Positions 2,447 to 64,000 of a DNA stretch of 64,000 bases are shown piece after piece. The first letter of the stretch is position 1, and every line of letters begins with the position of its first letter. Both the position numbers and the translations under genes were made by a program. Source of the DNA: Ignavibacteriota bacterium (lineage in GTDB: Bacteria > Bacteroidota > Ignavibacteria > Palsa-1295); contig CAWBEI010000002.1 in NCBI GenBank assembly GCA_963787835.1, forward strand, positions 1,440,001 through 1,504,000, given 5' to 3'. The notes beneath the pieces are model-generated. The model saw only the letters and a list, made by a program, of their open reading frames with translations, was not told the origin of the DNA and searched no databases.

Positions 2447-2770
2447 TTATTGGAATTTTGGATCTCTGATCCTTAATCGCTCCACTGGGTTTCCTCCAAC
2501 GAGGTGAGATTCCATGATTTCCGGTACATCCTCTGGTGTTACTCCGCCATACCAGATCCCCTCGGGATATACAACAACGGATGGCCCAAACTCGCAGGCA
2601 TCGAGGCATCCAGATTGGTTTGCACGCACAAGGCCACGCAATCCGCGTTGTTTGATCTCATCTTTTAAGGCAATACGAATAGCGGCCGATCCTTTGGCAG
2701 AGCAACAGCCTTTTGGATCGCCTTCGGGACGCACGTTCTCGCAGACGAAAATATGATGTTTAAATCGCAT
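2447..2770 (-). CDS. Thioredoxin-like [2Fe-2S] ferredoxin
   Basis: HIFVC...GCC...GCLDACEFGPSVVVYPEGIWY motif. Confidence 0.9.
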   Translation of the reverse strand: MRFKHHIFVCENVRPEGDPKGCCSAKGSAAIRIALKDEIKQRGLRGLVRANQSGCLDACEFGPSVVVYPEGIWYGGVTPEDVPEIMESHLVGGNPVERLRIRDPKFQ

Positions 2771-2780
2771 AGATTTTATT

Positions 2781-47930: not shown

Positions 47931-48935
47931 ATGCGGCGCATATTCATCCTTTTCGTGATCCTTGCCATCCTCCTTGGCACCGTATATTACGTGTTCTTTC
48001 TAAAAAATCCAAAGATCTCCGAGAATGAAGTTGTAATCAGCATCCCGCAAGGCACATCCGTTGCTGCGCTGACGGATACACTTGCGGCGCATCAGCTTAT
48101 TCGTTCGGGCGTTGCGTTTCAGTTCGCGGCGCGCGTGCTCGGTGCGGCAAAGGAGCTTCATGCCGGAAGGTACCGCATTGCGTACGGTCTTTCGAACACA
48201 CAAATTATTCGGCGGCTCACCGGCAGCGAGTACGCCCTAATTCTGCGCGCCACGTTCCCCGAAGGCATTACCATCTATCATGCCGCTTCGATCGCGAAGG
48301 ATAAGCTCGGACTCGATTCCGGAATTTTCATGCGGTTTGCATTTGACACTGCTTTCCTTCATTCCCTCGGAGTTCCTCAGGAAGCGAGATCGGCAGAAGG
48401 ATATTTATTTCCCGATACCTACGAATTTCTCCTCAGTGCCGATCCGAAAGGTTTGCTGACGAAAATGATAAAGCATTGGAAACGCTTGGTGGATGACTCG
48501 CTCTATCAAAATTCCGATGAGGAAGAACTTTCTCTTCAAGAAGTAATGACGCTGGCCTCGATCGTTGAAGCAGAAGCGCACCGTCCCGATGAGCGCGATA
48601 CGATCGCAAGCGTGTATCTCAATCGATTGCGAATAGGCATGAAACTCGATGCCGATCCATCAGTGCAATATGGTTTGCACCTCGATCACGCGATCACGCA
48701 TGACGATCTCCTCACACCCGGCCCCTATAATACCTATATGAATGCGGGACTCCCTCCGGGGCCGATCTGCAATCCCGGTGCGGCGAGCGTCCGCGCCGTG
48801 CTGCATCCGGCAAAAAGCAAGTATCTCTATTTCGTCGCGCGAAGGGATGGCTCCGGCGGCCATTATTTCAGCAAATCCCTGATCGAGCAGGATCGCAAGA
48901 TCAATATGGCGCGAGCAAATGCGGCTCAGGAATAG
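47931..48935 (+). CDS. mltG: Endolytic transglycosylase MltG
   Basis: TFPEG, EGYLFPDTY, ASIVEAEA, VYLNRL..GMKL..DPSV.Y, YNTY...GLPPGPI.NPG. Confidence 0.96.
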   Translation: MRRIFILFVILAILLGTVYYVFFLKNPKISENEVVISIPQGTSVAALTDTLAAHQLIRSGVAFQFAARVLGAAKELHAGRYRIAYGLSNTQIIRRLTGSEYALILRATFPEGITIYHAASIAKDKLGLDSGIFMRFAFDTAFLHSLGVPQEARSAEGYLFPDTYEFLLSADPKGLLTKMIKHWKRLVDDSLYQNSDEEELSLQEVMTLASIVEAEAHRPDERDTIASVYLNRLRIGMKLDADPSVQYGLHLDHAITHDDLLTPGPYNTYMNAGLPPGPICNPGAASVRAVLHPAKSKYLYFVARRDGSGGHYFSKSLIEQDRKINMARANAAQE

Positions 48936-48990
48936 AGCAAAGGCTAAAGTAATGGAACGGGTGAAGTTACCCTCCCTGTTAGCGCATCCT

Positions 48991-49099
48991 TAGAACCTGA
49001 GATACGCAAATTCTTGAGATTTACAAATATCCTGAGAATCCATCCGCGTAATCCGGATGATCGATCATCCGCTTTAATCCGCGTAATCCAGGTTCAGAT
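48991..49099. repeat. ATCCGCGTAATCC-type dispersed repeat (copy 2)
   Basis: AGAACCTG...ATCCGCGTAATCCAGGTTCAGAT, ending 3 nt before the tRNA. Confidence 0.8.
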
Positions 49100-49102
49100 A
49101 AA

Positions 49103-49179
49103 CGGCGTGTAGCGCAGCCTGGTAGCGCACTACTTTGGGGTAGTAGGGGTCGTGGGTTCAAATCCCGCCACGCCGACCA
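49103..49179 (+). tRNA. tRNA-Pro(GGG)
   Basis: CGGCGTG/CACGCCG acceptor stem, anticodon arm CTACT-TTGGGGT-AGTAG, GTTCAAATC T-loop, encoded CCA. Confidence 0.96.
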
Positions 49180-49180
49180 A

Positions 49181-49248
49181 TGAGTTGATAACGGATAGTG
49201 GAAAGTGGATAGTTTTTTTAATCCACTATCCGTTATACACTATCCACT
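49181..49248. repeat. Inverted tandem heptamer array (ATAGTGG)n/(CCACTAT)n between the tRNA and rodA
   Basis: ataacgg atagtgg aaagtgg atagt ... ccactat ccgttat acactat ccact; could act as a bidirectional terminator. Confidence 0.8.
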
Positions 49249-50515
49249 AAAAAAGCACCTTCCGGTTCCGGTACAAGTTCATCAGAATTCCCGCCATCAG
49301 CAGATTAGTGAGCAGCGCCGAGCCGCCGTAGCTCATGAAGGGAAGCGGAATGCCAATAACGGGCATCAGCCCAAGTGCCATGCCGATATTCACCGTCACA
49401 TGCAGGAACCATATTCCGGCAATGCCTATCGCGACGACGCTCGAAAAGATACTCCGTACGCTCGATGCAATGGCCACTCCTCGGAAGATCACAAACAGAT
49501 AGAGCAGGAGAATTACAACGGCGCCGACAAATCCGAATTCTTCCGAGGGCACACTGATGATAAAATCCGTCCATTGTTTTGGCACATATCGTAGCTGTGT
49601 TTGTGTGCCTTTCAAATAGCCTTTGCCTAAGATGCCTCCGGAACCGATCGCCATGCGCGTTTGGATCACATTATATCCCGCGCCAAGCGGATCGAGCTCC
49701 GGATTGAGCAGCACCTGCACGCGGTTCCGCTGATACTGATGCAAATGCTCGTAAATAAAATTCGTCGAGAAGGCAATAGCGATCACTACTCCGAATGTAA
49801 ATACCGTGAGTACAAGATTTCTTCGGAAGATAAAAAAGAGGATCGCGCCTCCGGCAAGCACGGCAATGACCGTTGGCGTTTGACCGAACAGCGATAGCAC
49901 GGCAACCAGCGCGGGGATCACAACCGCCGCAAGCAGGAACAGATCAACCCCCGACCATAACAACGTAATGACGAGCAATCCCACGAAAATAACGGCGGTT
50001 CCAGGATCGGGTTCCTTCAAAATGAGCGCCGTGGGGATAAAAACGATCGCGCACACAATGAGCACGTTGGAGATCTTTTCCAGATCGCGGCCTTTATTTA
50101 AATAGGCTCCAACGGTGAAGATCGTTGCGAGCTTTGCGATTTCCGATGGCTGGAACTGAAAACTCCCGATCGCGATCCAACTGCGGTGTCCATAAACAAG
50201 TTTTCCTTTAAACGCGACGAATACCAGCAACGCAAGGCTGATGCCATACAATGGGTATGCGATTGCTTGAAACCAACGAACAGGCAGCATTGCCATGACG
50301 ATCATGCCAGCAATGCCTCCGGCGGCAAACAACAATTGCGAGCCAAAGCGGTTGTTCATGTTCGCCGCGTAGGTTGCGCTATAGATCGCAAAAAATCCCG
50401 CCGTGACCAGCAAGAGCACGGAGAGAAATGTCGTAATGTCGAAATTCTTGATCTCCAGTACATCGCGTACTGCGGATGGACTGGAAAAATCGATCTGATT
50501 GCTTTCGATCGGCAT
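49247..50515 (-). CDS. rodA: SEDS protein RodA
   Basis: FQPSEIAK, EPDPGT, DPLGAGYN..Q...AIGSGG..GKG...GTQ, GIPLPFMSYGG. Confidence 0.96.
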   Translation of the reverse strand: MPIESNQIDFSSPSAVRDVLEIKNFDITTFLSVLLLVTAGFFAIYSATYAANMNNRFGSQLLFAAGGIAGMIVMAMLPVRWFQAIAYPLYGISLALLVFVAFKGKLVYGHRSWIAIGSFQFQPSEIAKLATIFTVGAYLNKGRDLEKISNVLIVCAIVFIPTALILKEPDPGTAVIFVGLLVITLLWSGVDLFLLAAVVIPALVAVLSLFGQTPTVIAVLAGGAILFFIFRRNLVLTVFTFGVVIAIAFSTNFIYEHLHQYQRNRVQVLLNPELDPLGAGYNVIQTRMAIGSGGILGKGYLKGTQTQLRYVPKQWTDFIISVPSEEFGFVGAVVILLLYLFVIFRGVAIASSVRSIFSSVVAIGIAGIWFLHVTVNIGMALGLMPVIGIPLPFMSYGGSALLTNLLMAGILMNLYRNRKVLF

Positions 50516-50551
50516 AGCGGATCTTAATAATCGGAACTTAATATCCGGTGC

Positions 50552-51079
50552 TTACTTCGAGCGCATGCCCGGACGGTGAGGATTCTTTGAACGCGGCGGT
50601 CCCAGTAATTCTCGGGTAACGATAAAGGTGCGAAGTGCATCTTTATCTAAAGGAATTTGGCGGCGTACCACATCGACTTTCTCGTAATTTTGCATCCCAA
50701 GAGAAGAAACGGGCGTAACGATTTCTTCGACCACTTCGTCATTCACAGGCACGATCTTTTTCTTGCGCTTTGCAGATTCCATCAGCGGACGAATGGCTTC
50801 GGGCGGCTCTTCGATGGCTGGCTGTGAGCGGTCTTGATAAGGAGTTGTCGGAAGAGGAATCGAGCGATCGGCACGAACCGGTTGATTCTCTTCGGCGCTT
50901 ACAGGACCTAAAATATCCGCTGGCCGCTGGCTCATTCGAGAGGGACGAGGTGGGGTGGGCATCGTTGACGATGCGCCCTGCGCGGCAGCATCCTTCATCT
51001 TTTGCGCGCGCATCGCCTTCCTGCGAGCCTGCAAGATGCCCCATCCGATGATGACAATTAAATAAATTACAGTTTTCAT
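50552..51079 (-). CDS. Hypothetical membrane-anchored protein
   Basis: N-terminal TM, Pro-rich linker, C-terminal ELLGPPRS. Confidence 0.7.
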   Translation of the reverse strand: MKTVIYLIVIIGWGILQARRKAMRAQKMKDAAAQGASSTMPTPPRPSRMSQRPADILGPVSAEENQPVRADRSIPLPTTPYQDRSQPAIEEPPEAIRPLMESAKRKKKIVPVNDEVVEEIVTPVSSLGMQNYEKVDVVRRQIPLDKDALRTFIVTRELLGPPRSKNPHRPGMRSK

Positions 51080-51082
51080 CGC

Positions 51083-51202
51083 GTAGCCGTGACCTTTAGG
51101 TCACGGTGTGTAGATGTGCGTTCCCGTAGCCGTGACCTTCAGGTCACGGTGTGTAATAGCCATGATATTGTCGTTACACCGCGAGCTAAAGCTCACGGCT
51201 AC
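51083..51202. repeat. REP family 1 cluster (3 copies)
   Basis: GTAGCCGTGACCTT(T/C)AGGTCACGGTG at 51083 and 51126; inverse copy at 51177-51202. Confidence 0.95.
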
Positions 51203-52437
51203 ATTCCAAAAACAATATTTCCCTTCTTCACCACTGCCACCACGTCGCTGACAGCAATATGATATGGCAGATATTCCAGCCGGGGAATATCATACAACAC
51301 GAAGTCCGCCAGTTTATTCCGCTCGATCGAACCATGCGTTTCGGCGCGGCCCAGAGCGGCAGCGCCGTTCAGCGTTGCGGCGGTTAATGCCTCGGTTGGC
51401 GACATCTGCATTCCGATCACGGCAAGTGTCATCGCGAATTGCATATTCTCGCTCATGGCGCTGCCGGGATTGCAATCCGTCGCGATGGCAACAGCGCATC
51501 CGGCATCGATCAGCTTCCGCGCGGGTGCATAATCTGCGCGCAAGCTAAGTGCAGTGATCGGCAACAATGTAGCAACAGTTCGCTCACTATTTGCGAGTGC
51601 CTGGATCCCTTCGTTACTAATTTTTAGAAGATGGTCTGCGCTGTACGCGCCGAGTTCCACTGCTGTTCTTGCGCCATCGGTTTCGGCAAGCTCATCGGCA
51701 TGGAGTTTTATTTTCATTCCCAATGCTTGTGCTGTGTTGCAGATCTGGAGGGTGTTTTCTTTTGAAAAATATCCTTCATCCATAAAGACGTCGCAGAATT
51801 CAGCCAGTTCGTGGAGCGCGGGTAATTGGACGGATCGGACGTGTTGGACATATTCTGATCGTGAGGTTCCATCGGGTACTGCGTGAGCGCCGAGATAGGT
51901 TCTTATTATTTCCATCGGCGTTTCTTCGCCCAGGCGCTTTGCAGCAAGGAGAAGTTTTCGCTCTTCTTCGGTAGCAAGCCCATAACCCGATTTTATTTCC
52001 ATCGTGGTCGTGCCGAGGCTCAATGCGCGCTCAATGATGGGCTTGGAATTTTTCACAATTTCGTCGATGGACGCATGGTGGACAGCGTGGACAGAAGAAA
52101 GAATTCCCCCTCCCATCGCCGCGATCTCCTGATACGATCGGCCTTCGGCGCGCATGGCGAATTCAAGGCATCGTTCTCCTGCGAATACAGCATGTGTGTG
52201 GGAATCGACAAAACCGGGCAGTGCAACAAGGCCGCGGCAATCGACCCGATCAATTTCCCCCACCTTAAGTAGGAGGGGGTCAGCAGGTGGTTTTGACCCA
52301 ACGTATTCGATCGTGCCATCATCACGGACAAGAATGCACGCATTGGACATCTCTTCAATTTTGCCCATTGCTCTGCCCCGCACCAGTGAGAATCCGCGCG
52401 GCGTGTAGAGTTTCCGGATGTTATGATACAACTTCAC
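51199..52437 (-). CDS. hutI: Imidazolonepropionase
   Basis: PGFVDSHTH, GGGILSSV, EIKSGYGL, HADEL, SADHL, ATDCNPGS. Confidence 0.97.
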   Translation of the reverse strand: MKLYHNIRKLYTPRGFSLVRGRAMGKIEEMSNACILVRDDGTIEYVGSKPPADPLLLKVGEIDRVDCRGLVALPGFVDSHTHAVFAGERCLEFAMRAEGRSYQEIAAMGGGILSSVHAVHHASIDEIVKNSKPIIERALSLGTTTMEIKSGYGLATEEERKLLLAAKRLGEETPMEIIRTYLGAHAVPDGTSRSEYVQHVRSVQLPALHELAEFCDVFMDEGYFSKENTLQICNTAQALGMKIKLHADELAETDGARTAVELGAYSADHLLKISNEGIQALANSERTVATLLPITALSLRADYAPARKLIDAGCAVAIATDCNPGSAMSENMQFAMTLAVIGMQMSPTEALTAATLNGAAALGRAETHGSIERNKLADFVLYDIPRLEYLPYHIAVSDVVAVVKKGNIVFGM

Positions 52438-52457
52438 AATACAAAGATACGAGCTTT

Positions 52458-52620
52458 GTAGCCGTAACCTTCAGGTTACGGTGTGAATGAGCAAAGCAGT
52501 TGCAGTCACACCGTGAGCTAAAGCTCACGGCTACGAAATTCCGCGTAGCCGTAACCTTCAGGTTACGGTATGAATGTGCAAAGCTGTTGCATTACACCGT
52601 GAGCTGAAGCTCACGGCTAT
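52458..52620. repeat. REP family 1 array (4 copies, two doublets) 3' of the RAYT gene
   Basis: 52458-52483, 52509-52534, 52545-52570, 52595-52620. Confidence 0.95.
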
Positions 52621-52629
52621 GAGATTCCA

Positions 52630-53112
52630 TCACAATATTCCACCGGTCCATTTTGATAGATCGAACACGGTCGAGCCTTTGAATGGATAATCCTGCCACG
52701 TATCGCAGATCCCCGCACGAACCGGATTATTTAAAATATAGGTGATGAGTTTGGCGAGATCTTCTTGCTCTCGAAGAATATGGTCATAAAAATCTTCTTG
52801 CCATCGAACATCGCTCTGATTTCTTGCAAGCCAGAATCCAGAGTATTGCTTGAACACTCGCATCGCCCCATAAATATCCGATGTGGACTCAAGTCCCGTA
52901 ATAACAACATGCAGATGGTCGGGCATGAAGAGATATACCTCCGATGCACAGTGATACTGTGATAATGCTCGTAATAAATGTTTTTCGTGAATCTCGAACG
53001 TTTCTCTCGTAAGAAAATAATTATGCCGTTGATCAATACACGCTGTAAAGGATGCTCGAACAAATCCTCGATACGTTTCGCGAGGAAGGCGGTGTTTCTT
53101 TTCCTGGATCAT
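52630..53112 (-). mobile_element. REP-associated tyrosine transposase (RAYT, Y1 HUH) no. 1
   Basis: MPDHLH (HUH), WQEDFYDHILR, YILNNPVRAG; flanked by GTAG REPs. Confidence 0.95.
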
Positions 53113-53128
53113 GTAAGTTTGAACAATA

Positions 53129-53323
53129 CACCGTAGCCTAAAGGTTACGGCTACGAATCCCCGTAGCCGTGACCTTCAGGTCACGGTGAATTTTGCGATG
53201 CCGTTGCAGTTACACCGTGAGCTAAAGCTCACGGCTACGAATCCCCGTAGCCGTAACCTTTAGGTTACGGTGTGAATTAATGATGGTGTTGCCGTTACAC
53301 CGTGAGCTAAAGCTCACGGCTAC
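53129..53323. repeat. REP family 1 array (5 copies) 5' of the RAYT gene
   Basis: 53129-53154, 53163-53188, 53213-53238, 53247-53272, 53298-53323. Confidence 0.95.
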
Positions 53324-53358
53324 GTTCGGATGGCGGATAATCGTCGTATTTTTGCACT

Positions 53359-54966
53359 GTGATTACATTAGACGGCAATTCTCTTACTATTGAAGACGTC
53401 GCCCGCGTTGCGCGGGGCGAGGAGCGGGATATAAAAATTTCGGAAGAAGCGAAAGTAAACATCGCTCGCTCACGAGCGCTGGTGGACGAATGGGTCGAGC
53501 GCGGCGAGATCATTTACGGCGTGACGACCGGCTTCGGCGAATTCGCAAATGTCAACATTCCTCATGAGGAGCTTCGTCAGCTTCAGCAGAATTTATTACG
53601 TTCCCACAGCGCAGGAGTTGGTGAACCGCTTGCACCGGAAGTAGTTCGGGCGATGCTGTTGCTTCGCGCGAATGCGCTCGCGAAAGGCTGCTCAGGAATT
53701 CGCCTTGTTGCCATTGAGCAATTATTGAAATTCCTGGCAGCGGATATACTTCCCGTGATCCCATCGCGCGGAAGCGTTGGTTCTTCCGGCGACCTTGCAC
53801 CATTGGCGCATCTGGCGCTTGCGCTAACCGGGGAAGGATATGTTGCGCAAACTTCAGTTTGCGATTCGGTCGAGGGGTCGCAAACTAAAGTTTGCGCTAC
53901 ACGGGAAGCCTTGCAACAGGCTGGTATCGCACCTCTCATTTTAGAAGCCAAAGAAGGGCTTGCGCTCATCAATGGAACTCAAATGATGTCGGCTATCGGT
54001 TGCCTTGCGCTCACCAGAGCGAAACAGCTTGCCGATCTGGCCGATATTGCCGGTGCGATGTCCTTCGAGGCTCTGCGTGCAACGGATACTGCATTCGATC
54101 CGCGCATTCATGCCGCACGCCCGCATAAGGGGCAGCAATTCGTCGCGGAGCGAATGCTTGGCCTCATTGCCGGCAGCGAAATTCGCCAATCGCATCGCGC
54201 GAATGACCCGCGTGTGCAGGATGCCTATTCCGTTCGCTGCATCCCGCAGGTTCACGGCGCTGTGCGGGATACCATAGAGTTCGTTGAGCGGACGTTGACG
54301 ATAGAAATAAACTCAGCGACAGATAATCCGCTTATATTTCCAGATGTAACACAAAATGTAGCGCAAACTTCAGTTTGCGACCCCGCGAATGGGTCGCAAA
54401 CTAAAGTTTGCGCTACAAGTGCACATCTCGAAGGCGGCAACTTCCACGGCGAACCGCTCGCTCTCGCCCTCGATTATCTCGCTATCGCGCTCTCGGAACT
54501 TGCCAGCATTTCCGAACGCCGCACGGAACGGCTAATCAATGGTGCACTTTCGAATGGGTTGCCTCGGTTCCTCACCGACCATGGCGGACTGAATTCCGGC
54601 TACATGATCGCGCAATACACCGCCGCTGCTCTCGTAAGCGAAAATAAAGTTCTCGCGCATCCCGCGAGCGTCGATTCCATCCCCACGAGCGCCAATATGG
54701 AAGATCACAATTCCATGGGATCTATTGCGGCGCTGAAATTGCGAAGTGTTGTGAAGAATGTCGAGACCGTCCTCGCCATCGAGCTGCTTTGCGCCGCGCA
54801 GGGGATCGATTTCCTCGCGCCGCTCAAGCCCGGCAAAGGCACCGGCAGCGCACACGAACGTATCCGCCAGCGCGTCCCGCATTTGGATAAGGATAGGAAT
54901 GTATCCCAGGATATTGCAAAAGTCCTCGAATTAACGCAAGGAAGAGAGTTTTTGAAAAACATCTGA
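53359..54966 (+). CDS. hutH: Histidine ammonia-lyase with two in-frame 20-aa REP-derived segments
   Basis: YGVTTGFG, GSVGSSGDLAPLAH, KEGLALINGTQ, QDAYSVRC.PQVHG, GGNFHGEP, EDHNSMG; next to hutI. Confidence 0.97.
   Translation: MITLDGNSLTIEDVARVARGEERDIKISEEAKVNIARSRALVDEWVERGEIIYGVTTGFGEFANVNIPHEELRQLQQNLLRSHSAGVGEPLAPEVVRAMLLLRANALAKGCSGIRLVAIEQLLKFLAADILPVIPSRGSVGSSGDLAPLAHLALALTGEGYVAQTSVCDSVEGSQTKVCATREALQQAGIAPLILEAKEGLALINGTQMMSAIGCLALTRAKQLADLADIAGAMSFEALRATDTAFDPRIHAARPHKGQQFVAERMLGLIAGSEIRQSHRANDPRVQDAYSVRCIPQVHGAVRDTIEFVERTLTIEINSATDNPLIFPDVTQNVAQTSVCDPANGSQTKVCATSAHLEGGNFHGEPLALALDYLAIALSELASISERRTERLINGALSNGLPRFLTDHGGLNSGYMIAQYTAAALVSENKVLAHPASVDSIPTSANMEDHNSMGSIAALKLRSVVKNVETVLAIELLCAAQGIDFLAPLKPGKGTGSAHERIRQRVPHLDKDRNVSQDIAKVLELTQGREFLKNI
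53842..53901. repeat. REP family 2 doublet in frame within hutH (aa 162-181)
   Basis: GTTGCGCAAACTTCAGTTTGCGA...TCGCAAACTAAAGTTTGCGCTACA. Confidence 0.95.
54358..54417. repeat. REP family 2 doublet in frame within hutH (aa 334-353)
   Basis: GTAGCGCAAACTTCAGTTTGCGACCC...GGGTCGCAAACTAAAGTTTGCGCTACA. Confidence 0.95.
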
Positions 54967-54978
54967 TTTGCCCATCAT

Positions 54979-55058
54979 GTCATCCCCGCGAAAGCGGGGA
55001 TCCAGACCCAAACTTCACTGAAACGTGAGGCCTGGATTCCCGCTTTCGCGGGAATGAC
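54979..55058. repeat. dRS3-like hairpin doublet without a nuclease gene
   Basis: GTCATCCCCGCGAAAGCGGGGATCCA...TGGATTCCCGCTTTCGCGGGAATGAC; the second unit is identical to 33100-33125. Confidence 0.92.
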
Positions 55059-55133
55059 AATCACCAGATTTATTAAATAGGTCAAAAATAAGTCCCTCCT
55101 GCATTATTCCACGAGATTCTTGTTGTCCTCTTC

Positions 55134-56306
55134 ATGAGAAATCGCGTTGTCCTGGGCGTCCTGTTCCTGCTGCTTATCGCCGAAGCGCTTCCCTCGTGCA
55201 AATCGCCGATTTCCCCCACACCCGCTGGGCCAACGCTTACGCTGATCCTTCCTGATTCCGCCCATGTATTCGATACCCTCGCGATTTCAGCACATTTCTC
55301 AGAATCGATCGAACCTACTTGGCTCTTCGCATGGCAATTCGGTGATTCCGCAAAGGCATCGACACGCTGGTTGCCCGTTTCCCACATCTACGATAGTGCT
55401 GGAACGTTCACAGTTCAACTTGCGGTGACGGACACTTTTGCACTCAAAACCATCGCGAAACAGACGGGGCAACTCAAGGTCATGCCCCTGAATACCCCTA
55501 CACTGATGCTCACCGCGCCCGCCACCAACTTCTGGGGAGATTCTTGTCCGATGAGGATTCAGAGTTCCCTTCCATTAAAACCATCCTGGGCTTATTCGTG
55601 GACGTTCGGCGATAGCACGACCCTGACATCTGGGCAAGATTCGATCCTGCATTATTTTGTCACTCCCGGAACATTCACGGTTCGCGTCTCGCTGAGTGAC
55701 ACGCAGCATCACATTCCGCTCGGCTCCCAAACGGCTACGGTGAAAGTAACTGCTCGGCATTTCAATTTGGCATTGTTGCAATCGATGAAGTACGTTGATT
55801 TTCGTTACCAAGCTCGAATATCTTTATCTTCAACCGGTGGTGGGGGTGGTCCTTGCGGGACAATCCCAACAACAGATACATTAACATGGAGTGGTGTCAA
55901 ATTTACTATGAATTCGACCATTAGCTATGAAATTTCAGAACCACAAGTCGAGAAAGACAGTGAATACGGGGTGTATTCTATTAATGGTACAATGAATAAT
56001 GATAGTTCCGAGTTAGATATTTTCTCAGGGAATATTTTTTACACGTCTCAGGATTTTAATTATATGGAAAATTCTGGATGCTATACCACCTATGATAACT
56101 TTTTCGATGCAGAAGCTGTGCCACTTTTAAGACAATCTGATACTGATGTTGTTTTCAAAGCCAGAGGTAACCTTATTAAGAATGCGCGCTATGGAAATAT
56201 TTTTTCTGGAGCTGTACCACATACTGGACAGTTCTCTGTTGACGATACTGCCGTCTTTAGCGATCAGTCTGCAGATCCTTACGTCACCATCCGCTTCCAC
56301 AAATAA
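55134..56306 (+). CDS. Lipoprotein with two PKD domains
   Basis: LPSC lipobox; WQFGDS...HIYDSAGTFTVQL and WTFGDS...HYFVTPGTFTVRV. Confidence 0.8.
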   Translation: MRNRVVLGVLFLLLIAEALPSCKSPISPTPAGPTLTLILPDSAHVFDTLAISAHFSESIEPTWLFAWQFGDSAKASTRWLPVSHIYDSAGTFTVQLAVTDTFALKTIAKQTGQLKVMPLNTPTLMLTAPATNFWGDSCPMRIQSSLPLKPSWAYSWTFGDSTTLTSGQDSILHYFVTPGTFTVRVSLSDTQHHIPLGSQTATVKVTARHFNLALLQSMKYVDFRYQARISLSSTGGGGGPCGTIPTTDTLTWSGVKFTMNSTISYEISEPQVEKDSEYGVYSINGTMNNDSSELDIFSGNIFYTSQDFNYMENSGCYTTYDNFFDAEAVPLLRQSDTDVVFKARGNLIKNARYGNIFSGAVPHTGQFSVDDTAVFSDQSADPYVTIRFHK

Positions 56307-56308
56307 CC

Positions 56309-57223
56309 ATGCGGTCTCGTAATATTCTTAGTCTCTTGCTCCTGCTGCTTATCACCGCAGCTCTTCCCTCGTGCAAGTCGCCGACGGCAACCACGCAATC
56401 TTCCTTGTTTACGTTGATTTTGCCGGACTCAACCGTAGCATGGGGTGATTCTGCGATGATGATGGTCGTTCCGGCGAAGCCACTGAGTTCATCATCTATT
56501 TTTACCTGGACGTTCGGAGATAGTTCATCTCTCGTTTCACGCAATGATACCATCATCCATTATTATCCAGATACGGGTGTGTTTTCCGTGAAGGTTGCTT
56601 TGAATGACACATCGAATAGATCCCAACACGGTACGGAATCTGGGATGGTGGCCGTCGCGGCGCGGCATTTCAATTTGGCGCTGTTGCAGTCGATGCCGTA
56701 TGTGGATGTTCAATGTTCGGGAAAAACCATTGTTGCATCGAATAATATTCTAACTTGCTCTCCCTGTGGTCCTGGCCTTGTAGAGGTGACGTCCTCATTA
56801 CAATTGACATGGACGAATTCAAATTTCAGCGGATCGTACTCTGAATTTAAGAACGATACAGTCGGTAATACATTCAACGATTTAAATGCTTGGCAGACGA
56901 TATTAGGTTCGTATGATAAGAATCTTACTAAAATCGTAAGCTATTCATTGCAGTCAAGCATAGATCAATCTGAAAGCTTTTCAGGTTCAGAGTCATGTGT
57001 TCAACAAAGTTCATCTTCGGGATCATTTGTACAAATCCCCTTCAAGCATCAATCAGATTCTGAAGTCGTTTTCGAAGCAGTAGGAACACTTACTTTAAAA
57101 GACAGTTGTGCCTCCGGTTGCAGTGGATATAATCCAGGTGAAGGGAATCCTCAATATAATTCCCACGTTGATTTTGCCGATACAACTGTTACTCCTTACG
57201 TCATCATCCGCTTCCACAAATAA
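56309..57223 (+). CDS. Lipoprotein with one PKD domain (paralog)
   Basis: LPSC lipobox; WTFGDS...HYYPDTGVFSV; shares ARHFNLALLQSM and IRFHK with the previous gene. Confidence 0.8.
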   Translation: MRSRNILSLLLLLLITAALPSCKSPTATTQSSLFTLILPDSTVAWGDSAMMMVVPAKPLSSSSIFTWTFGDSSSLVSRNDTIIHYYPDTGVFSVKVALNDTSNRSQHGTESGMVAVAARHFNLALLQSMPYVDVQCSGKTIVASNNILTCSPCGPGLVEVTSSLQLTWTNSNFSGSYSEFKNDTVGNTFNDLNAWQTILGSYDKNLTKIVSYSLQSSIDQSESFSGSESCVQQSSSSGSFVQIPFKHQSDSEVVFEAVGTLTLKDSCASGCSGYNPGEGNPQYNSHVDFADTTVTPYVIIRFHK

Positions 57224-57234
57224 TCGCGAATCTC

Positions 57235-57311
57235 GTAGCCGTGACCTTCAGGTCACGGTGTGAATCAGCAACGGTATTTCATTTACACCGTGAGCTAAAG
57301 CTCACGGCTAC
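57235..57311. repeat. Isolated REP family 1 doublet (REPIN-like)
   Basis: 57235-57260 and inverse 57286-57311. Confidence 0.95.
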
Positions 57312-57361
57312 AAGGTTATGCGAACGCCCTTCCTACGAAAGCGCGTTTCATCAGGCAACTC

Positions 57362-58759
57362 ATGATTCGCAGACTTTACAAGGAATACCGTTTCCAGATC
57401 ATTCTGGCGTTTTCGCTGGTCGTTCTGGAGAATTTCGCCTACGTGGCGGAGCCGTATGTCTTTGGGAAAGCGATAGATGGACTCCGCGAAGCCAACCGTG
57501 TGGAAGAAGAAGTTGATACCACGTTATCGTCGTTTCAGCGCAGGGAATTAGCGGATTCGATACGCGCGCGCGTTGTCGATTCGATGAAGATGGTCGATTC
57601 CCTTCAGCGGCTGGATTCACTTTCCTCCAGCCTATATCCCAGCGAACCCGCGATAAACGATGCTTCGATGGAAGCCGATCACGCCGAAGCGGATGCCCGG
57701 GCTTCGTATGTGCATCTCGCGTTGTATGTTGTTGGCCATCGGAATAGATCGGCTGCATTCGATACTGGAACTGTTTCATTGCCGCAGGAGGGAACTCCCG
57801 AGCGCGCACGGATCGATAGCATTCGCCATGCGCTCCGGCTATTCGACTCCATTCGGAGCCGGCAGCGTCACAAGAAGCATCCTCAGATGACGCGTCAGGC
57901 CGCTCGCGATTCCATTCTGAAGGCACACGCAGCCGGAAAGCCGTCTCCCGGTCCCGGAAAACCTGCCGGCACATCGAATCAACCTCCGAAACAGCCGCTC
58001 GTTTTTTACATGACGCGTGAGATCGGGCCGTTCCTTCCGCCGCTTATTCCGTGGGTGCTGCTGTTCCTCATCAACTCTGCTGTCGGCGCGATACGGCGTG
58101 TGTATGATACCCGCATCTATACCAAGATGTTCTCGAATCTTTCCAGCGATGTGGTTGCGCGGCAACTCGCGCAAGGGGAGGATCTCTCCAAAGTTGCGGC
58201 GCGAAGCGCTATGGCGTGGCATAATATCGAGTTCTTTCAGTATAATGTACCGGAGTTCCTCGAACAGCTTATTGCCGTCGGTGGAGCGGTCATTGCATTG
58301 GGGCTTTTTGACTGGCGGCTGACCGTCGTGGGATCGATATTGATCGTGCTTGTGGTGATCGGGAGCAGATATTACATGAACTTGTTGACGAATATTCAAT
58401 CGACGCTGCACGATCAGTATGAAGATGAATTCAACGTTTTCTCAACTCGCGAACCGGCCAAGATTCGCTCATACTATTCGAACATTGCGGATCTGGAGAT
58501 AAAGTATTCTGTCCGATCAACGTTCAGTTACGGTGTCGTCCGATTCTTTCTTCTTATCATGTTCCTCTCGACGCTCTATATCTCGATCGATCTGGATAAA
58601 TTCACCATCGGTGCGCTCTATTCCATCGTGGCATACGTATGGAGCTTCGTCACCGCTACGGAATACATCCCATATCTCTCCGAGAAATGGGTGGAGCTGA
58701 AAGATGCTTCGCGGAGGATCACAGAACCGCTGGAATCAGAACCTGGATTACGCGGATAA
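57362..58759 (+). CDS. ABC transporter six-TM-like protein with a large insertion and no ATPase domain
   Basis: PYVFGKAIDGL, GAIRRVYDTRIYTK, IEFFQ..VP. Confidence 0.65.
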   Translation: MIRRLYKEYRFQIILAFSLVVLENFAYVAEPYVFGKAIDGLREANRVEEEVDTTLSSFQRRELADSIRARVVDSMKMVDSLQRLDSLSSSLYPSEPAINDASMEADHAEADARASYVHLALYVVGHRNRSAAFDTGTVSLPQEGTPERARIDSIRHALRLFDSIRSRQRHKKHPQMTRQAARDSILKAHAAGKPSPGPGKPAGTSNQPPKQPLVFYMTREIGPFLPPLIPWVLLFLINSAVGAIRRVYDTRIYTKMFSNLSSDVVARQLAQGEDLSKVAARSAMAWHNIEFFQYNVPEFLEQLIAVGGAVIALGLFDWRLTVVGSILIVLVVIGSRYYMNLLTNIQSTLHDQYEDEFNVFSTREPAKIRSYYSNIADLEIKYSVRSTFSYGVVRFFLLIMFLSTLYISIDLDKFTIGALYSIVAYVWSFVTATEYIPYLSEKWVELKDASRRITEPLESEPGLRG

Positions 58760-58924
58760 GGACAGAAGCGGGATTTCGCGGATTTGGATGGATTTCGCGG
58801 ACGATTGCAAGGATTTATTCTCTTACGTCCGTCGAGGTAATTATCATGAAATTTGAATTTTACCCGCACAATCCGAAAAATCGTCCGCGTAATCCATCCA
58901 AATCTGTGTAATCCCGGTTCAGAT
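58735..58924. repeat. ATCCGCGTAATCC-type repeat, two-armed inverted copy (copy 3)
   Basis: ATCAGAACCTGGATTACGCGGAT ... ATCTGTGTAATCCCGGTTCAGAT. Confidence 0.8.
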
Positions 58925-58960
58925 TGCGTATTTTTGTACCAATCATTTCCCAATAACCCT

Positions 58961-60775
58961 ATGATACAACGAAAAAACCTCCTTACTCTCACTACATTTG
59001 CACTTTTTGCACTCATTTTCGGAAGTTGCGGCAAAGGCGGCGGCCCAGCCAACGGGCTATCGACGAAGAACAGTGTAGTGTGGTATGTTTCCGGCGACAT
59101 CGAAGGGCTCAATCCGATCACGACCGCTGATGAGAATGCGGTCTATGCAGAGAATCTCTTATATGAAGCACTCACAGGCCAGAATGCACGCACCCAGGCA
59201 TTTATTCCCGGTCTTGCCGCGCTGCCTGTCGAGAGTGCGGATCACCTGACGTTCACCTTTACGATGGATCCGACCGCCCATTGGTCCGATGGCAAACCCG
59301 TTACTGCGGAAGATGTGATCTTTTCCTATAAGATCATTCAAAATCCTTTTGTTACGAACGCCGCCCCGCTCCGAAGTTATTATGCGGACATGGATAGTTG
59401 CTGGATACCCGCCGGTCAGACGAATCAGGTGATGTTCCATTTTTCAAAATACCGCTTCGACCTCTTGAAGGTCATCAATTACACTCGTATTCTGCCAAAG
59501 CATATTTGGGATCCAACGAACCTCACGGATAAATGCAGTTGGAAAGAACTGAAGACGGATAATCCGACGAATCCGGCGATCAAGGACCTTGCAACGAATT
59601 TTCAGGATCAGAAATCCAATCGCGATCCGGGCCACATGATCGGAAGCGGAGCGTACAAATTTGAATCATGGGTCACGAACGACCGGGTCACGATGCGTCG
59701 TGATACTAATTACTGGGCGAAGAATCACCCCTGGTCCGAAGCCTATCCAGACCAGATCATCTTTAAGACGATCAAGGACGAGACCGCCGCGCTCATTTCT
59801 CTCAAGCATCAGGATATCGACTTCAATCTCACGCTTACTGCGGATGAATATGTCAATGGCTTCGATTCCGCACAGCTTAAGTGGATCAAGAAGGATACCG
59901 TCTATGAGAATTTGTATTTCTTTGTCGGCTGGAATGATTCGAAACCGATCTTCGCCGATAAGAACGTACGAAAAGCTCTCACAATGCTGATCGATCGCGA
60001 TAAGATCATTCACTCGATCATGCACGATCTCGGCAAAAAAGTGGATGGCCCCGTTGCTCCGACGCAGCCTAATTACGATCCCACCGCAAAGCAACCTGAC
60101 TATAATGTAGATGCTGCGAAGAAAATGCTCACGGATGCCGGATGGGCCGATCACGATGGCGATGGTGTACTCGATAAGGTGATCAACGGCAAGAAGACGG
60201 ATTTCCATTTTGTCATCGAGATCCCAAGTGGTTCTGAAGCGAATAAACAAATTGCCGTTGTGATCTCCCACGATCTGAAGGCCGCCGGAATCATTGCCGA
60301 GGTCACTGCCCTTGAAAATTCCGTTCATCTTAACAATCTACGAAGCCATGATTTCGATGCGTATATCGGTGGGTGGGCTGGCAACGTGACCGGTCAAGAA
60401 GGTGTCGAAGACGAGTTGAGCCAGTTATGGGAATCCTCTCAGGCTACGCAAGGTGGATCGAATTTCGTTTCCTATAAAGACCCGGTTGCCGACAAGATCA
60501 TGGAAGAGATCAAAGTGGAACCCGACCGTGCAAAACGGATGGATCTGAGCCATCAATTGCAGCATATCATGGTGGACGATCAACCCGTGACATTCCTCTG
60601 GTCCCGCCCAGATCGCATTGCATGGATCGACCGTTTCGATAACTTCGAGTTCTTCCCATCACGGCCTCCCGTCGATCCGACGAAGTGGATCGTCCGTGGT
60701 TCCGGTGTGAAACGCTATCCCGGTGCCGCTACCTATAGTTTAAATCCGGCAGAACGGACGGAGCCGGCACAGTAA
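58961..60775 (+). CDS. Peptide/nickel ABC transporter substrate-binding lipoprotein (family 5)
   Basis: FGSC lipobox, WSDGKPVTAEDVIFS, GSGAYKF, VRKALTMLIDR. Confidence 0.92.
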   Translation: MIQRKNLLTLTTFALFALIFGSCGKGGGPANGLSTKNSVVWYVSGDIEGLNPITTADENAVYAENLLYEALTGQNARTQAFIPGLAALPVESADHLTFTFTMDPTAHWSDGKPVTAEDVIFSYKIIQNPFVTNAAPLRSYYADMDSCWIPAGQTNQVMFHFSKYRFDLLKVINYTRILPKHIWDPTNLTDKCSWKELKTDNPTNPAIKDLATNFQDQKSNRDPGHMIGSGAYKFESWVTNDRVTMRRDTNYWAKNHPWSEAYPDQIIFKTIKDETAALISLKHQDIDFNLTLTADEYVNGFDSAQLKWIKKDTVYENLYFFVGWNDSKPIFADKNVRKALTMLIDRDKIIHSIMHDLGKKVDGPVAPTQPNYDPTAKQPDYNVDAAKKMLTDAGWADHDGDGVLDKVINGKKTDFHFVIEIPSGSEANKQIAVVISHDLKAAGIIAEVTALENSVHLNNLRSHDFDAYIGGWAGNVTGQEGVEDELSQLWESSQATQGGSNFVSYKDPVADKIMEEIKVEPDRAKRMDLSHQLQHIMVDDQPVTFLWSRPDRIAWIDRFDNFEFFPSRPPVDPTKWIVRGSGVKRYPGAATYSLNPAERTEPAQ

Positions 60776-60973
60776 CTATTCCATTTTCACCATCTTAGGT
60801 GTGAGCGCATTTTTCGTGGTATCGCCGATAATATCGGCGGGACCACGGAACATGCGGGGATGCTTGCCTTCCATTTTGTGAAGCGAGTTCGCGGTAGCAG
60901 CTGAATCCGCTACGGGCGGGGGTGGTTGCTTCATGCAACTGACGATAAACAGAATTAAAAATGCAACTGTCAT
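60776..60973 (-). CDS. Small putative lipoprotein
   Basis: MTVAFLILFIVSC signal; its stop abuts the oppA stop; the ATG lies in the repeat end. Confidence 0.45.
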   Translation of the reverse strand: MTVAFLILFIVSCMKQPPPPVADSAATANSLHKMEGKHPRMFRGPADIIGDTTKNALTPKMVKME

Positions 60974-61095
60974 CCTGAGCGGAGCAAACCGCAGCGAAGC
61001 GGAGGTTTGCGGAGTCGAAGGATCTCTGGAACTTGCAGAGATCCTTCGACTCCGTTCTTCTCTCCTTCGTCGAGAAGAACTCCGCTCAGGATGAC
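60969..61095. repeat. GTCATCCTGAGCG...CGCTCAGGATGAC palindromic element
   Basis: Terminal IR GTCATCCTGAGCGGAG and inner IR CGGAGTCGAAGGATCTCTG/CAGAGATCCTTCGACTCCG. Confidence 0.9.
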
Positions 61096-61109
61096 ATAAT
61101 GGATAGATC

Positions 61110-61595
61110 ATGATTCTTTATCTTGTTCGTCATGGTGATGCCGATACGATCGCTCCGCGCGACGATGAACGCGTGCTTTCGAAAAAAGGGATTCGCGTTA
61201 CCACGGCAATGGCGCAATTACTGAAACACGCGGAGTTCGACCTGCCGGAGATCATTCTTACCAGCCCCTTGCCGCGCGCAGAACAAACAGCGCGTATCAT
61301 GCTCGAAGAGTTCGCGCCAAAAGCGAAATTCGAAATTATAGAAGGACTTCGTTCCGGCGGCAGCATAGAAGCGGTCATGTCCATTATTGCTGCAAACAAA
61401 GAAGAATGCGATGTACTGATGCTCGTTGGCCACGATCCGCTATTCTCCATGCTTGCCAGCATCCTTGTCAGCGGAACCGAATATGCGATCGAAATGAAAA
61501 AGAGCGCGGTTGCAGTTATTGAGATCACGCGATTTGAAGCCCCAAGGATGCGGGGAATATTACGGGCGTTTCTCCCACCTCGTATCGCAATGTAG
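61110..61595 (+). CDS. sixA: Phosphohistidine phosphatase SixA
   Basis: LYLVRHGDA, D.ER.L...G, SPLPRAEQTA, LVGHDP. Confidence 0.92.
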   Translation: MILYLVRHGDADTIAPRDDERVLSKKGIRVTTAMAQLLKHAEFDLPEIILTSPLPRAEQTARIMLEEFAPKAKFEIIEGLRSGGSIEAVMSIIAANKEECDVLMLVGHDPLFSMLASILVSGTEYAIEMKKSAVAVIEITRFEAPRMRGILRAFLPPRIAM

Positions 61596-61655
61596 CGCAA
61601 ACTTTAGTTTGCGACCCCCACCCCGCGCGAAGTCGCAAACTAAAGTTTACGCTAC
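61592..61655. repeat. REP family 2 doublet 3' of RAYT no. 2
   Basis: GTAGCGCAAACTTTAGTTTGCGACCC...GTCGCAAACTAAAGTTTACGCTAC. Confidence 0.95.
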
Positions 61656-61662
61656 AATCGTG

Positions 61663-62301
61663 TTACAATGCGACGCCGCCCAACTTGGGATGGAGATATG
61701 TCCATGGATAATCGTCCCAATTAGCAACGAGTCCAGCATGAACCGGATTCATCAAAATGTATTCAATGATTCTATCGAACTCACCATCTCGGACAACGTG
61801 ATCGTAGCTCTCGTGTTGCCAGAATGTTCCTGAACGGCCAAGTGCCTTATTGCATTCAAAAGCACTTCTGCCTTTAAGTAACTGCATGATATGCCTCAGA
61901 GATTTCTCCGGGTTGGAGAGCGAGAGTAATACATGAACATGATTTGACATGATAGTGAAACACCAGAGAGTGACATGTCCTTCTCGATCGAGTGAGTGCA
62001 AAGTATCTGCTACGATCCTGGCGGCAAGTGGGTTGCTGAGGACTTTAGATTCTTTTGAGGAATCCAGCATCGTGTCGAATTTCGCGAAATGTTTTTTTCG
62101 TAAGATTGCAATTTCTTCTGGGGTCGATGTTTTAGATTTTGCGGAACTTGTGATTTGTCGCTGTTCCGCTTGAAGACTGTCGAGCACGGATTTTGGTAAT
62201 GAGTTGTGTAAGCGAAAGGTTATGAAAAGGGCGGCATCGGGCGGTGTAAAATGTGGGAGATTCCGGCGATAGGTTGGAGGGTTTTCTTTCCAAATGCTCA
62301 T
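61663..62301 (-). mobile_element. REP-associated tyrosine transposase (RAYT, Y1 HUH) no. 2
   Basis: YRRNLPH, FITFRL, MSNHVH (HUH), FWQHESYDHVVR, YILMNPVHAGL. Confidence 0.95.
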
Positions 62302-62321
62302 AGGATTTCTGTTAAGCGTGG

Positions 62322-62347
62322 GGGTCGCAAACTAAAGTTTGCGCTAC
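62322..62347. repeat. REP family 2 single copy 5' of RAYT no. 2
   Basis: GGGTCGCAAACTAAAGTTTGCGCTAC. Confidence 0.95.
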
Positions 62348-62354
62348 ATTTGTA

Positions 62355-64000
62355 CTACACATTTTTTTTCCACGCCGCGATCTTATTCATCGCGTCCATC
62401 GGCGTAAGCGTGTTCAAGTCGAGATTTCTCAATTCATTCGCAATGGTCTCTGCGCGTTCGTCGCCGAAGGCTTGCTTAAGTTTGTCAGCTCGTTCTTCGC
62501 GGGTCATACGCTCCAAGAAGGGGATGGCTCGCTGGATGTTCGCTTCTGCAATTTCGAGTTCCGTTGCTTCGAGCGAGCTAAGAATTTCCCGCGCTCTGTC
62601 AATGACGTCCGGCGGAATTCCTGCCATCGCCGCAACTTCTATACCATACGAATGATCTGCAAAGCCGGGAGCTATTTTGTGAAGAAAATGCACTTTGCCT
62701 TCCGCCTCGCGAACTTCTACTTTTAGATTGAGTATGCGAGGGTTCCTATCGGCAAGTGCGTTCAGTTCGTGGTAATGCGTGGCGAACAGCGTGCGCGCTC
62801 CCGGAAGATTATCGTGGATGTATTCTGCAATAGCCCACGCGATAGATATGCCATCGAAGGTAGAGGTGCCTCGACCAAGTTCGTCGAAAAGCAATAGGGA
62901 ATTCTTTGTGGCATTGCTGAGGATATTCGCGGCCTCGTTCATCTCGACCAAGAATGTCGATTCGCCGCTGGAAACATTATCGCTTGCGCCCACCCGAGTA
63001 AAAATTCTATCGAGGACGGGGAAGTTCGCTTTTGCCGCTGGAACGAACGAGCCGGCATGAGCGAGATAAGCAAGAATTCCCGTCTGCCGCAGATACACCG
63101 ATTTGCCAGACATATTCGGTCCGGTAATAATATAAAATTCGAAGTCACCGGGTGAGAACATCACGCTGTTCGGCGTGAATCGCTCGCCCACGGGCATCAG
63201 TTTTTCCACGACGGGATGACGTCCCATCTCGATGGAGAAATCTCCGGTATCGTTAAATGCGGGTCGAGTCCAGTTGTTCTTCGTTGCGAGTGATGAAAAT
63301 GTGGTAAGCACATCGAGCACGGCGATCAGCTCGGCATTACGCTGAAGTTGGTGCGTATCCTCCAGTATTCGTGCGCGCAGCTTATCGATCATCTCGCGCT
63401 CGATGGTTTGCATCCGTTCTTCCGCGCCGAGAATTTTAGCTTCGTACTCTTTGAGTTCTTGCGTGATATAGCGTTCGGCGTTCGTCATCGTTTGCCGGCG
63501 TTCGTAATCTGTTGGAACTTTCGCAGCGTTCGCCTTCGAGACCTCGATATAATATCCGAAGACATTATTATAATCCACTTTCAGCGTGGAGATGCCGGTT
63601 CGCTCGCGCTCGCGAGCCTGGATATTCGCAAGCATTTCGCGGCTGTTGCGCGTTAGTGCCCGAAGTTCGTCCAGCTCCGGATTGGCGCCATCGCGAATCA
63701 CACCCAAATGGGCGACCGTCGTTGGCGGGTCCGGGGCAATGATCTTGTCAATTTCTTCTGCAAGCGCGCCGAGTGGACTGAGTTGGGTGGCGATCGTGGA
63801 CAGGATCTGTATCGCGCCGACATTTCCGTTGGCAACAAGCTGTTCCGTCAGTTGCTTTATCTCTGGAATATGCCACAGCGAGAATTTCAGCATCAGAAAA
63901 TCGCGTGGTGAAAGAATGCGCGCGCTGGCAAATCGCCCGACGAGCCGCTCGATATCGCCAAGCTCGCGAAATTCCATGCGAAGTTTGTCGCGAAGTTCCC
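62355..64000 (-). CDS. mutS: DNA mismatch repair protein MutS (3' part; truncated by the window edge)
   Basis: DIERL, GRHPVVE, TGPNMSGKS, GESTFLVEM, DELGRGTST, FATHYHEL, SYGIEVA. Confidence 0.98.
   Translation of the reverse strand, partial: ELRDKLRMEFRELGDIERLVGRFASARILSPRDFLMLKFSLWHIPEIKQLTEQLVANGNVGAIQILSTIATQLSPLGALAEEIDKIIAPDPPTTVAHLGVIRDGANPELDELRALTRNSREMLANIQARERERTGISTLKVDYNNVFGYYIEVSKANAAKVPTDYERRQTMTNAERYITQELKEYEAKILGAEERMQTIEREMIDKLRARILEDTHQLQRNAELIAVLDVLTTFSSLATKNNWTRPAFNDTGDFSIEMGRHPVVEKLMPVGERFTPNSVMFSPGDFEFYIITGPNMSGKSVYLRQTGILAYLAHAGSFVPAAKANFPVLDRIFTRVGASDNVSSGESTFLVEMNEAANILSNATKNSLLLFDELGRGTSTFDGISIAWAIAEYIHDNLPGARTLFATHYHELNALADRNPRILNLKVEVREAEGKVHFLHKIAPGFADHSYGIEVAAMAGIPPDVIDRAREILSSLEATELEIAEANIQRAIPFLERMTREERADKLKQAFGDERAETIANELRNLDLNTLTPMDAMNKIAAWKKNV

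Follow-up and report, generated by a model that had tools for sequence, protein, structure and literature searches.

In-frame REP doublets of a RAYT-associated family in histidine ammonia-lyase, at enzyme loops that related genomes fill with other repeat-like sequences

The histidine ammonia-lyase gene of an Ignavibacteriota bacterium contains two palindromic segments within its reading frame, which raises the question of where these segments came from and what became of the enzyme that carries them. We analysed a stretch of 64,000 nucleotides (the window), in which hutH lies on the forward strand at 53359..54966 with hutI and one RAYT gene as neighbours; G000 denotes the genome of the window, G002, G005, G006, G009 and G014 denote relatives, and P0002 and similar labels denote HutH proteins. 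The ORF of 535 amino acids is unbroken and scores 667 bits against TIGR01225 (cut-off 539). We found that the invariant HAL columns are retained and that the MIO tripeptide (residues 142-144) is identical in 120/120 homologs; hence, by equivalog score, MIO tripeptide and invariant residues, the protein belongs with HutH, and the AlphaFold2 model agrees with solved HAL structures at a TM-score of 0.86-0.88. The protein is predicted to convert histidine to urocanate. The HutH proteins of G000 and G006 are 90% identical although 49% of the fourfold sites of the genes have changed, as expected under purifying selection. At residue 447 (window 54697-54699), beside a conserved acidic motif, there is a Met that is common to 13 near relatives, and 88/101 matched homologs have Gln there. 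An Rfam search of positions 48000-64000 returned nothing but a tRNA. In a metagenome scan, 3/80 loci exceeded 70% identity. Homologs with a name, which share about 70% of residues, belong to Ca. Kapabacteria or Bacteroidota, and the host is hence likely similar to Kapabacteria.

The earlier note had placed two 60-nt palindromes of 20 codons each in hutH, with the ORF and catalytic motifs intact. Their location, the 20 codons and the intact ORF and motifs were borne out; each segment is better described as a 61-nt doublet of two head-to-head arms, with the codons formed by its last 60 nt. The first (site 1) lies at 53841..53901, supplies codons 162-181 in place of a native beta-hairpin region and has a silent change within its 5' tag. 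The second (site 2) lies at 54357..54417, supplies codons 334-353 in a loop predicted to be disordered and has the same junction in G006. Directly ahead of site 2, at 54345..54356 on the forward strand, is a decayed 12-nt duplicate of the repeat head that is intact in G006 and probably is the remnant of an earlier copy, so the repeat-derived stretch at site 2 comes to about 72 nt. Both doublets fold into strong DNA hairpins (z = -7.3 at site 1 and -10.1 at site 2, with 0/200 shuffles folding equally well). The doublet of site 2 is shared with G006 and that of site 1 is not, which supports two separate insertions, as had been proposed. Orthologs from genomes without this repeat also lack the peptides, the opposite of what would have refuted the earlier note.

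Two RAYT genes of the window could have been the source of these repeats, and the earlier note favoured the more distant one. RAYT2 lies on the reverse strand at 61663..62301, scores 83.9 bits against NF047646 (cut-off 80) and has its HUH motif (121-123) and Tyr166 intact. It is flanked by repeats of one GTAG-type REP family, which we call REP2: a doublet downstream (61591..61656) and a single reverse-strand arm upstream (62324..62348). The arms of the hutH doublets match these flanking repeats (28/28 and 27/27 nt complementary) and have no match among the repeats of RAYT1. RAYT1 (52630..53112, reverse strand) also passes NF047646 and is adjacent to hutH, but it is flanked by a different REP family and was rejected as the source. 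The third RAYT, on contig C6, was rejected likewise because another REP lies beside it. The attribution to RAYT2 agrees with the relatives, as REP2 flanks both sides of the RAYT2 orthologs of G014 and G005. Among 30 RAYT loci fetched with RAYT2, REP2 was found on both sides only at the three closest proteins, those of G000, G014 (85%) and G005 (65%); three other loci had one REP2 match with three mismatches and 24 had none. In a second set of 30 loci, those of the RAYT1 type had a different REP (5/30 loci). As separate observations, RAYT1 and its own REP array sit between the divergent hutI and hutH (window 52455-53334), the third RAYT (G000:C6:115151-115735) has a third REP, and the relatives hold many RAYT-REP pairs.

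REP2 has the architecture of a REP, namely a GTAG tag followed by a short palindrome (with a T before the tag in 86/87 heads), inverted doublets that fold into a long hairpin, and a cognate RAYT with intact HUH and Tyr and the same REP on both sides. G000 contains 45 arms at 32 loci, and a shuffled genome contains none at up to four mismatches. REP2 was present in 10/15 genomes of the genus and 0/286 others. Hence, REP2 is confined to the genus and is paired with RAYT2. Given this association and what other RAYTs do in vitro (PMC8266576), we infer that REP2 may be moved by RAYT2.

We found REP2 in frame at nine internal sites in eight genes of G000, including the two in hutH; hence, hutH is not special. 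The other genes are murB, dxs, mnmE, mtnN, egtB, a pgi-like gene and a FAD monooxygenase gene. By crude gene calls, 20/29 REP2 loci are outside gene interiors, so the family is mostly extragenic, and the 9/29 inside still represent depletion against the 74% of the genome that is gene interior. REP1 has 2/29 loci inside genes and several repeat families have none. Two further G000 sites resembling decayed REP2 were not counted, as their local scores of 14 and 16 lay under the shuffle 95th percentile of 20, a value derived from shuffles of the first site. Overall, the small repeat families of G000 number more than 20, at 11-73 loci each, some never in genes and others often. One arm of the REP2 doublet in murB (L141, G000:C2:689990-690068) hosts a repeat from another family, all in frame. 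In the pgi-like gene (L146), repeat-derived segments replace native residues with length unchanged, at 40 residues between anchors in 6/6 genomes. At the 3' ends of a folD-like gene and gatA (L149 and L150), the last residues are coded by REP2, from which the gatA stop codon also comes.

The reading frame explains the peptides that these copies encode. Of the three frames of a 61-nt doublet, two contain a stop and one is open; hence, surviving copies code for the same peptide and its cysteine pair is forced. A role for the cysteine pair in the enzyme was thus left without support: the pair follows from the sole open frame and is often lost, with both cysteines in 5/7 doublet peptides of G000, one in 1/7 and none in 1/7, and with one cysteine lost in the peptide of P0014/P0015. 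Doublet length was 1 modulo 3 at 14/14 internal loci vs 24/52 outside genes, a count that includes orthologous sites more than once and covers loci from five relatives (30, 30, 28, 23 and 30; partial for G005, G006 and G014).

How the doublet moves is suggested by the only clean empty/filled pair that we found, at window 2770-2776 (G000:C2:1442773). The site is empty in G000 and, at window 2773, is filled in G006 (L237) and G009 (L356) by REP2 doublets with different spacers, so that the doublet either was cleanly lost from G000 or arrived at this spot more than once by targeting. No target duplication is visible at this one site, within a 1-nt ambiguity, suggesting that the whole doublet moves without one. 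If the whole 61-nt doublet moves, a copy would shift the frame, and each in-frame copy would have required a deletion along with it; otherwise, the unit would be one of 60 nt.

The two hutH doublets had been described as insertions tolerated in surface loops. This description suits site 2, where residues 333-351 of the AlphaFold2 model mostly have pLDDT <50, as in a flexible loop. It is not supported at site 1, where the strands of a native hairpin are replaced. The span there is 21 residues, 20 of them repeat-coded, and in 50 outer homologs it is 11-31 residues with a median of 15; the net gain is about six residues, hence this is no plain 20-residue insertion, and the alignment shows that about 14 native residues are gone. 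In the model of G000 HutH (block pLDDT about 68, <50 at 167-173), the strands are 161-164 and 177-180, so the prediction has both hairpin strands formed by repeat-coded residues. P0009, which is sister to G000 in the HutH tree (98/84), has a site 1 of 16 residues, for which the model gives a hairpin at pLDDT 92-95, and its protein resemblance suggests a trimmed REP2 peptide of native length. Alignments rich in native hairpins may bias both models toward strands. The series from native hairpin to REP-replaced (G000) to trimmed (P0009) is a candidate example of structural residues, beyond loop filler, that derive from mobile DNA.

We found that REP2 is one of several occupants of these positions. 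At all nine sites, some relatives have other repeat-like occupants, and several of the sites are short or empty in the basal genomes, as judged by eye in a comparison of 6 to 15 genomes per gene with some anchors missed. Both HutH loops are short in outer homologs but long and of variable length in the nearest ones. At site 2, the length is 11-19 residues in outer homologs (median 14, n=52) and 11-43 in the 36 nearest (median 25), and the loops of this near group hold many unrelated occupants, among them another GTAG doublet, several heptamer and nonamer arrays and GC-rich hairpins (labels by eye). P0014 and P0021 differ at 7/515 residues outside site 2 and are wholly different within it. A tree of eight genes, built after removal of the gapped loops, pairs G000 with G002 as sisters (95/99) in a clade that also has G006 and G014. 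At dxs, one heptamer insert is common to G002, G006 and G014 and G000 has REP2 there, which reads as a replacement of the heptamer by REP2. Repeats are nested in repeats in alleles of murB (G000), egtB (G002) and mtnN (G005), and occupant swapping is visible at intergenic sites too. In 19 further G006 regions, we found three more internal doublets, with other sequence in G000 there. As a side observation, three adjacent genes (G000:C2:826891-831531, one terminase-like by eye) have REP2 in frame in G006, G014, G002 or G005 and other sequence in G000. The two HutH loops likely act as swappable landing pads for repeats.

The sites shared by G000 and G006 allowed the age of an insert to be compared with that of its host gene. 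For four inserts common to both genomes, the arms have 2/36 fourfold sites changed, and the genes have 305/696; the 25 flanking codons have 42/81 changed (binomial P 4e-7). This comparison covers four genes, one genome pair and recognisable copies, with codons that are linked and not independent; the arms were defined by position, and the murB and mnmE pairs and the decayed pgi-like single arm were left out. That single arm is decayed in both G002 and G006. Over all, the shared arms differ at 6/171 nt, and the spacers at shared sites are identical at 7/11 and 8/11 positions, barely above unrelated pairs (mode 6), a level that fits inheritance as well as renewal. Hence, doublet arms have kept close to the consensus of the family as the silent sites of their host genes diverged. 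Such conservation may arise by copy-to-copy conversion or re-insertion, with selection on an mRNA hairpin as an alternative. We found no close RAYT2 in G006, G002 or G009 (best 45, 35 and 51%; G006 is 80% complete), and these genomes have 73, 34 and 33 REP2 matches, respectively; hence, RAYT2 is not needed for keeping the arms young. Conversion of REPs was reportedly proposed already in 1988. With host silent sites as a clock, the old intragenic doublets and their young arms make REP conversion or renewal testable.

Other explanations of these data were weighed. That the hutH segments are an assembly artefact, or that hutH is a decaying, junk-tolerant gene, we regard as very improbable. The assembly is of the metagenome type, and site 2 was unspanned by contigs from four runs; however, site 1 is spanned with zero differences by contigs of two soil runs, both from one study that may have sampled the source itself. 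The element at site 2 is also present with an identical junction in the separate species G006, under the pattern of purifying selection, which argues against decay, as do the invariant HAL columns that are kept and the same inserts in the essential-type genes murB and dxs. A use for the inserts, with selection keeping the arms for an mRNA hairpin (stability or pausing) or for a cysteine-pair peptide in HutH, would account for arms that are kept at both the silent and the amino-acid level, for the strong hairpins and for REP2 being in genes more often than REP1. We consider it unlikely, given that most relatives lack REP2 at these sites, that the same peptide occurs in unrelated enzymes, that cysteines are lost in two of the seven G000 peptides and in P0014/P0015, and that REP2 is depleted in genes by the crude calls.

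It is similarly doubtful that repeat entry is rare and that species instead trade loop alleles through short patches of homologous recombination within the conserved flanks. Identical junctions occur in non-sister proteins (G000/G006, P0002/P0005 and G009/G005), with the first two pairs in conflict with the HutH tree, very close proteins such as P0014 and P0021 have different occupants, and REP2 is retained by genomes in which we found no close RAYT2; interspecies exchange may contribute to the shared junctions. Against exchange as the general explanation, silent sites close to the four shared inserts (up to 25 codons away) have diverged as much as the genes, so no recent tract is visible; swapping is seen at intergenic sites as well; and different REP2 junctions at one site (mnmE, egtB and hutH site 2) need separate arrivals.

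Hence, we favour as the probable explanation that doublets of the RAYT2 family entered hutH twice, at spots that the genus refills repeatedly with unrelated repeats, and that the enzyme, which is predicted to be active, carries them as nearly neutral passengers. The doublet would be moved in single-stranded form by RAYT2 or another RAYT related to it, leaving no target duplication, and surviving copies yield the same peptide, cysteines included, from the one stop-free frame. Arrival often accompanies loss of the earlier occupant or of native residues, as with the 14 or so at site 1, where repeat-coded residues are predicted to make both hairpin strands and a later in-frame deletion would trim them to native length. 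The arms would then be held near consensus by conversion between copies or by re-insertion.

Several known systems resemble this one. Rickettsia palindromic elements, in the available descriptions, likewise place palindromes in frame within the conserved enzymes of a single genus; RPE-1 is longer than the REP2 doublet. In Nostoc, Elhai is said to have described in 2008 small dispersed repeats nested in heptamer repeats, with tiny repeats inserting into others and into themselves; in contrast, the nested and exchanged repeats here are translated within core enzymes. RPE-4/6 are of the CGTC type with no associated transposase, according to PMC3733652, whereas REP2 has a GTAG tag and a cognate RAYT. 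As in the REPIN-RAYT systems (Bertels and Rainey 2011, PMC3116915; Nunvar 2010, PMC2817692), the unit of REP2 is the inverted doublet, a single-copy HUH/Tyr transposase is flanked by its own REPs and there are several RAYT-REP pairs per genome; unlike REP2, with 9/29 loci inside genes, REPINs are described there as extragenic. For TnpA-REP, cleavage has been seen in vitro (PMC8266576), whereas cleavage of REP2 by RAYT2 is a prediction.

The closest likeness is to the intragenic GTAG REPs of Di Nocera et al. 2013 (PMC3733652). The parts of that paper available to us already describe in-frame, RAYT-associated GTAG dimers of 15-30 residues (Opitutus terrae GTAG-17/18/19 and Thioalkalivibrio uvrA), of which Opitutus terrae alone accounts for 70 rows of intragenic GTAG repeats, and even two dimers of the same family in one enzyme, as in uvrA and the FGAM synthase Oter_3711; they are often read as neutral loop inserts. 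The link from a RAYT-associated REP to new protein sequence, put forward in the earlier note, was therefore published before, and the bare in-frame insertion in hutH is an ordinary member of the GTAG REP/RAYT kind that adds only a member. REP2 differs in family and phylum, as those parts contain no GTAG family in Bacteroidetes, and the supplements seen contain neither hutH nor the REP2 peptide. They describe one shared site (Xanthomonas recB) and no occupant exchange, native-strand loss or silent-site comparison. In PMC3686654, new REP variants are mentioned as replacing old ones around RAYT genes. The literature searched, with subscription papers outside its coverage, held no account of occupant exchange in enzyme loops. 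Hence, the added value is comparative and consists of occupant exchange, a replaced hairpin and conserved arms, beyond the published in-frame REPs.

More tentatively, we propose for the genus as a whole that a fixed set of loops in core enzymes could act as revolving doors, in which RAYT-moved doublets and other small repeats enter and evict each other before proteins have diverged by 2%, undergo renewal in place as DNA and may overwrite native secondary structure, to be trimmed afterwards to a native-length beta-hairpin. Comparison within the genus also locates permissive sites in HutH, MurB, Dxs, MnmE, MtnN and EgtB. If the proposal is true, such loops would let one see how selfish palindromes can become structural protein sequence and would provide a natural clock for the old question of whether REPs evolve by conversion.
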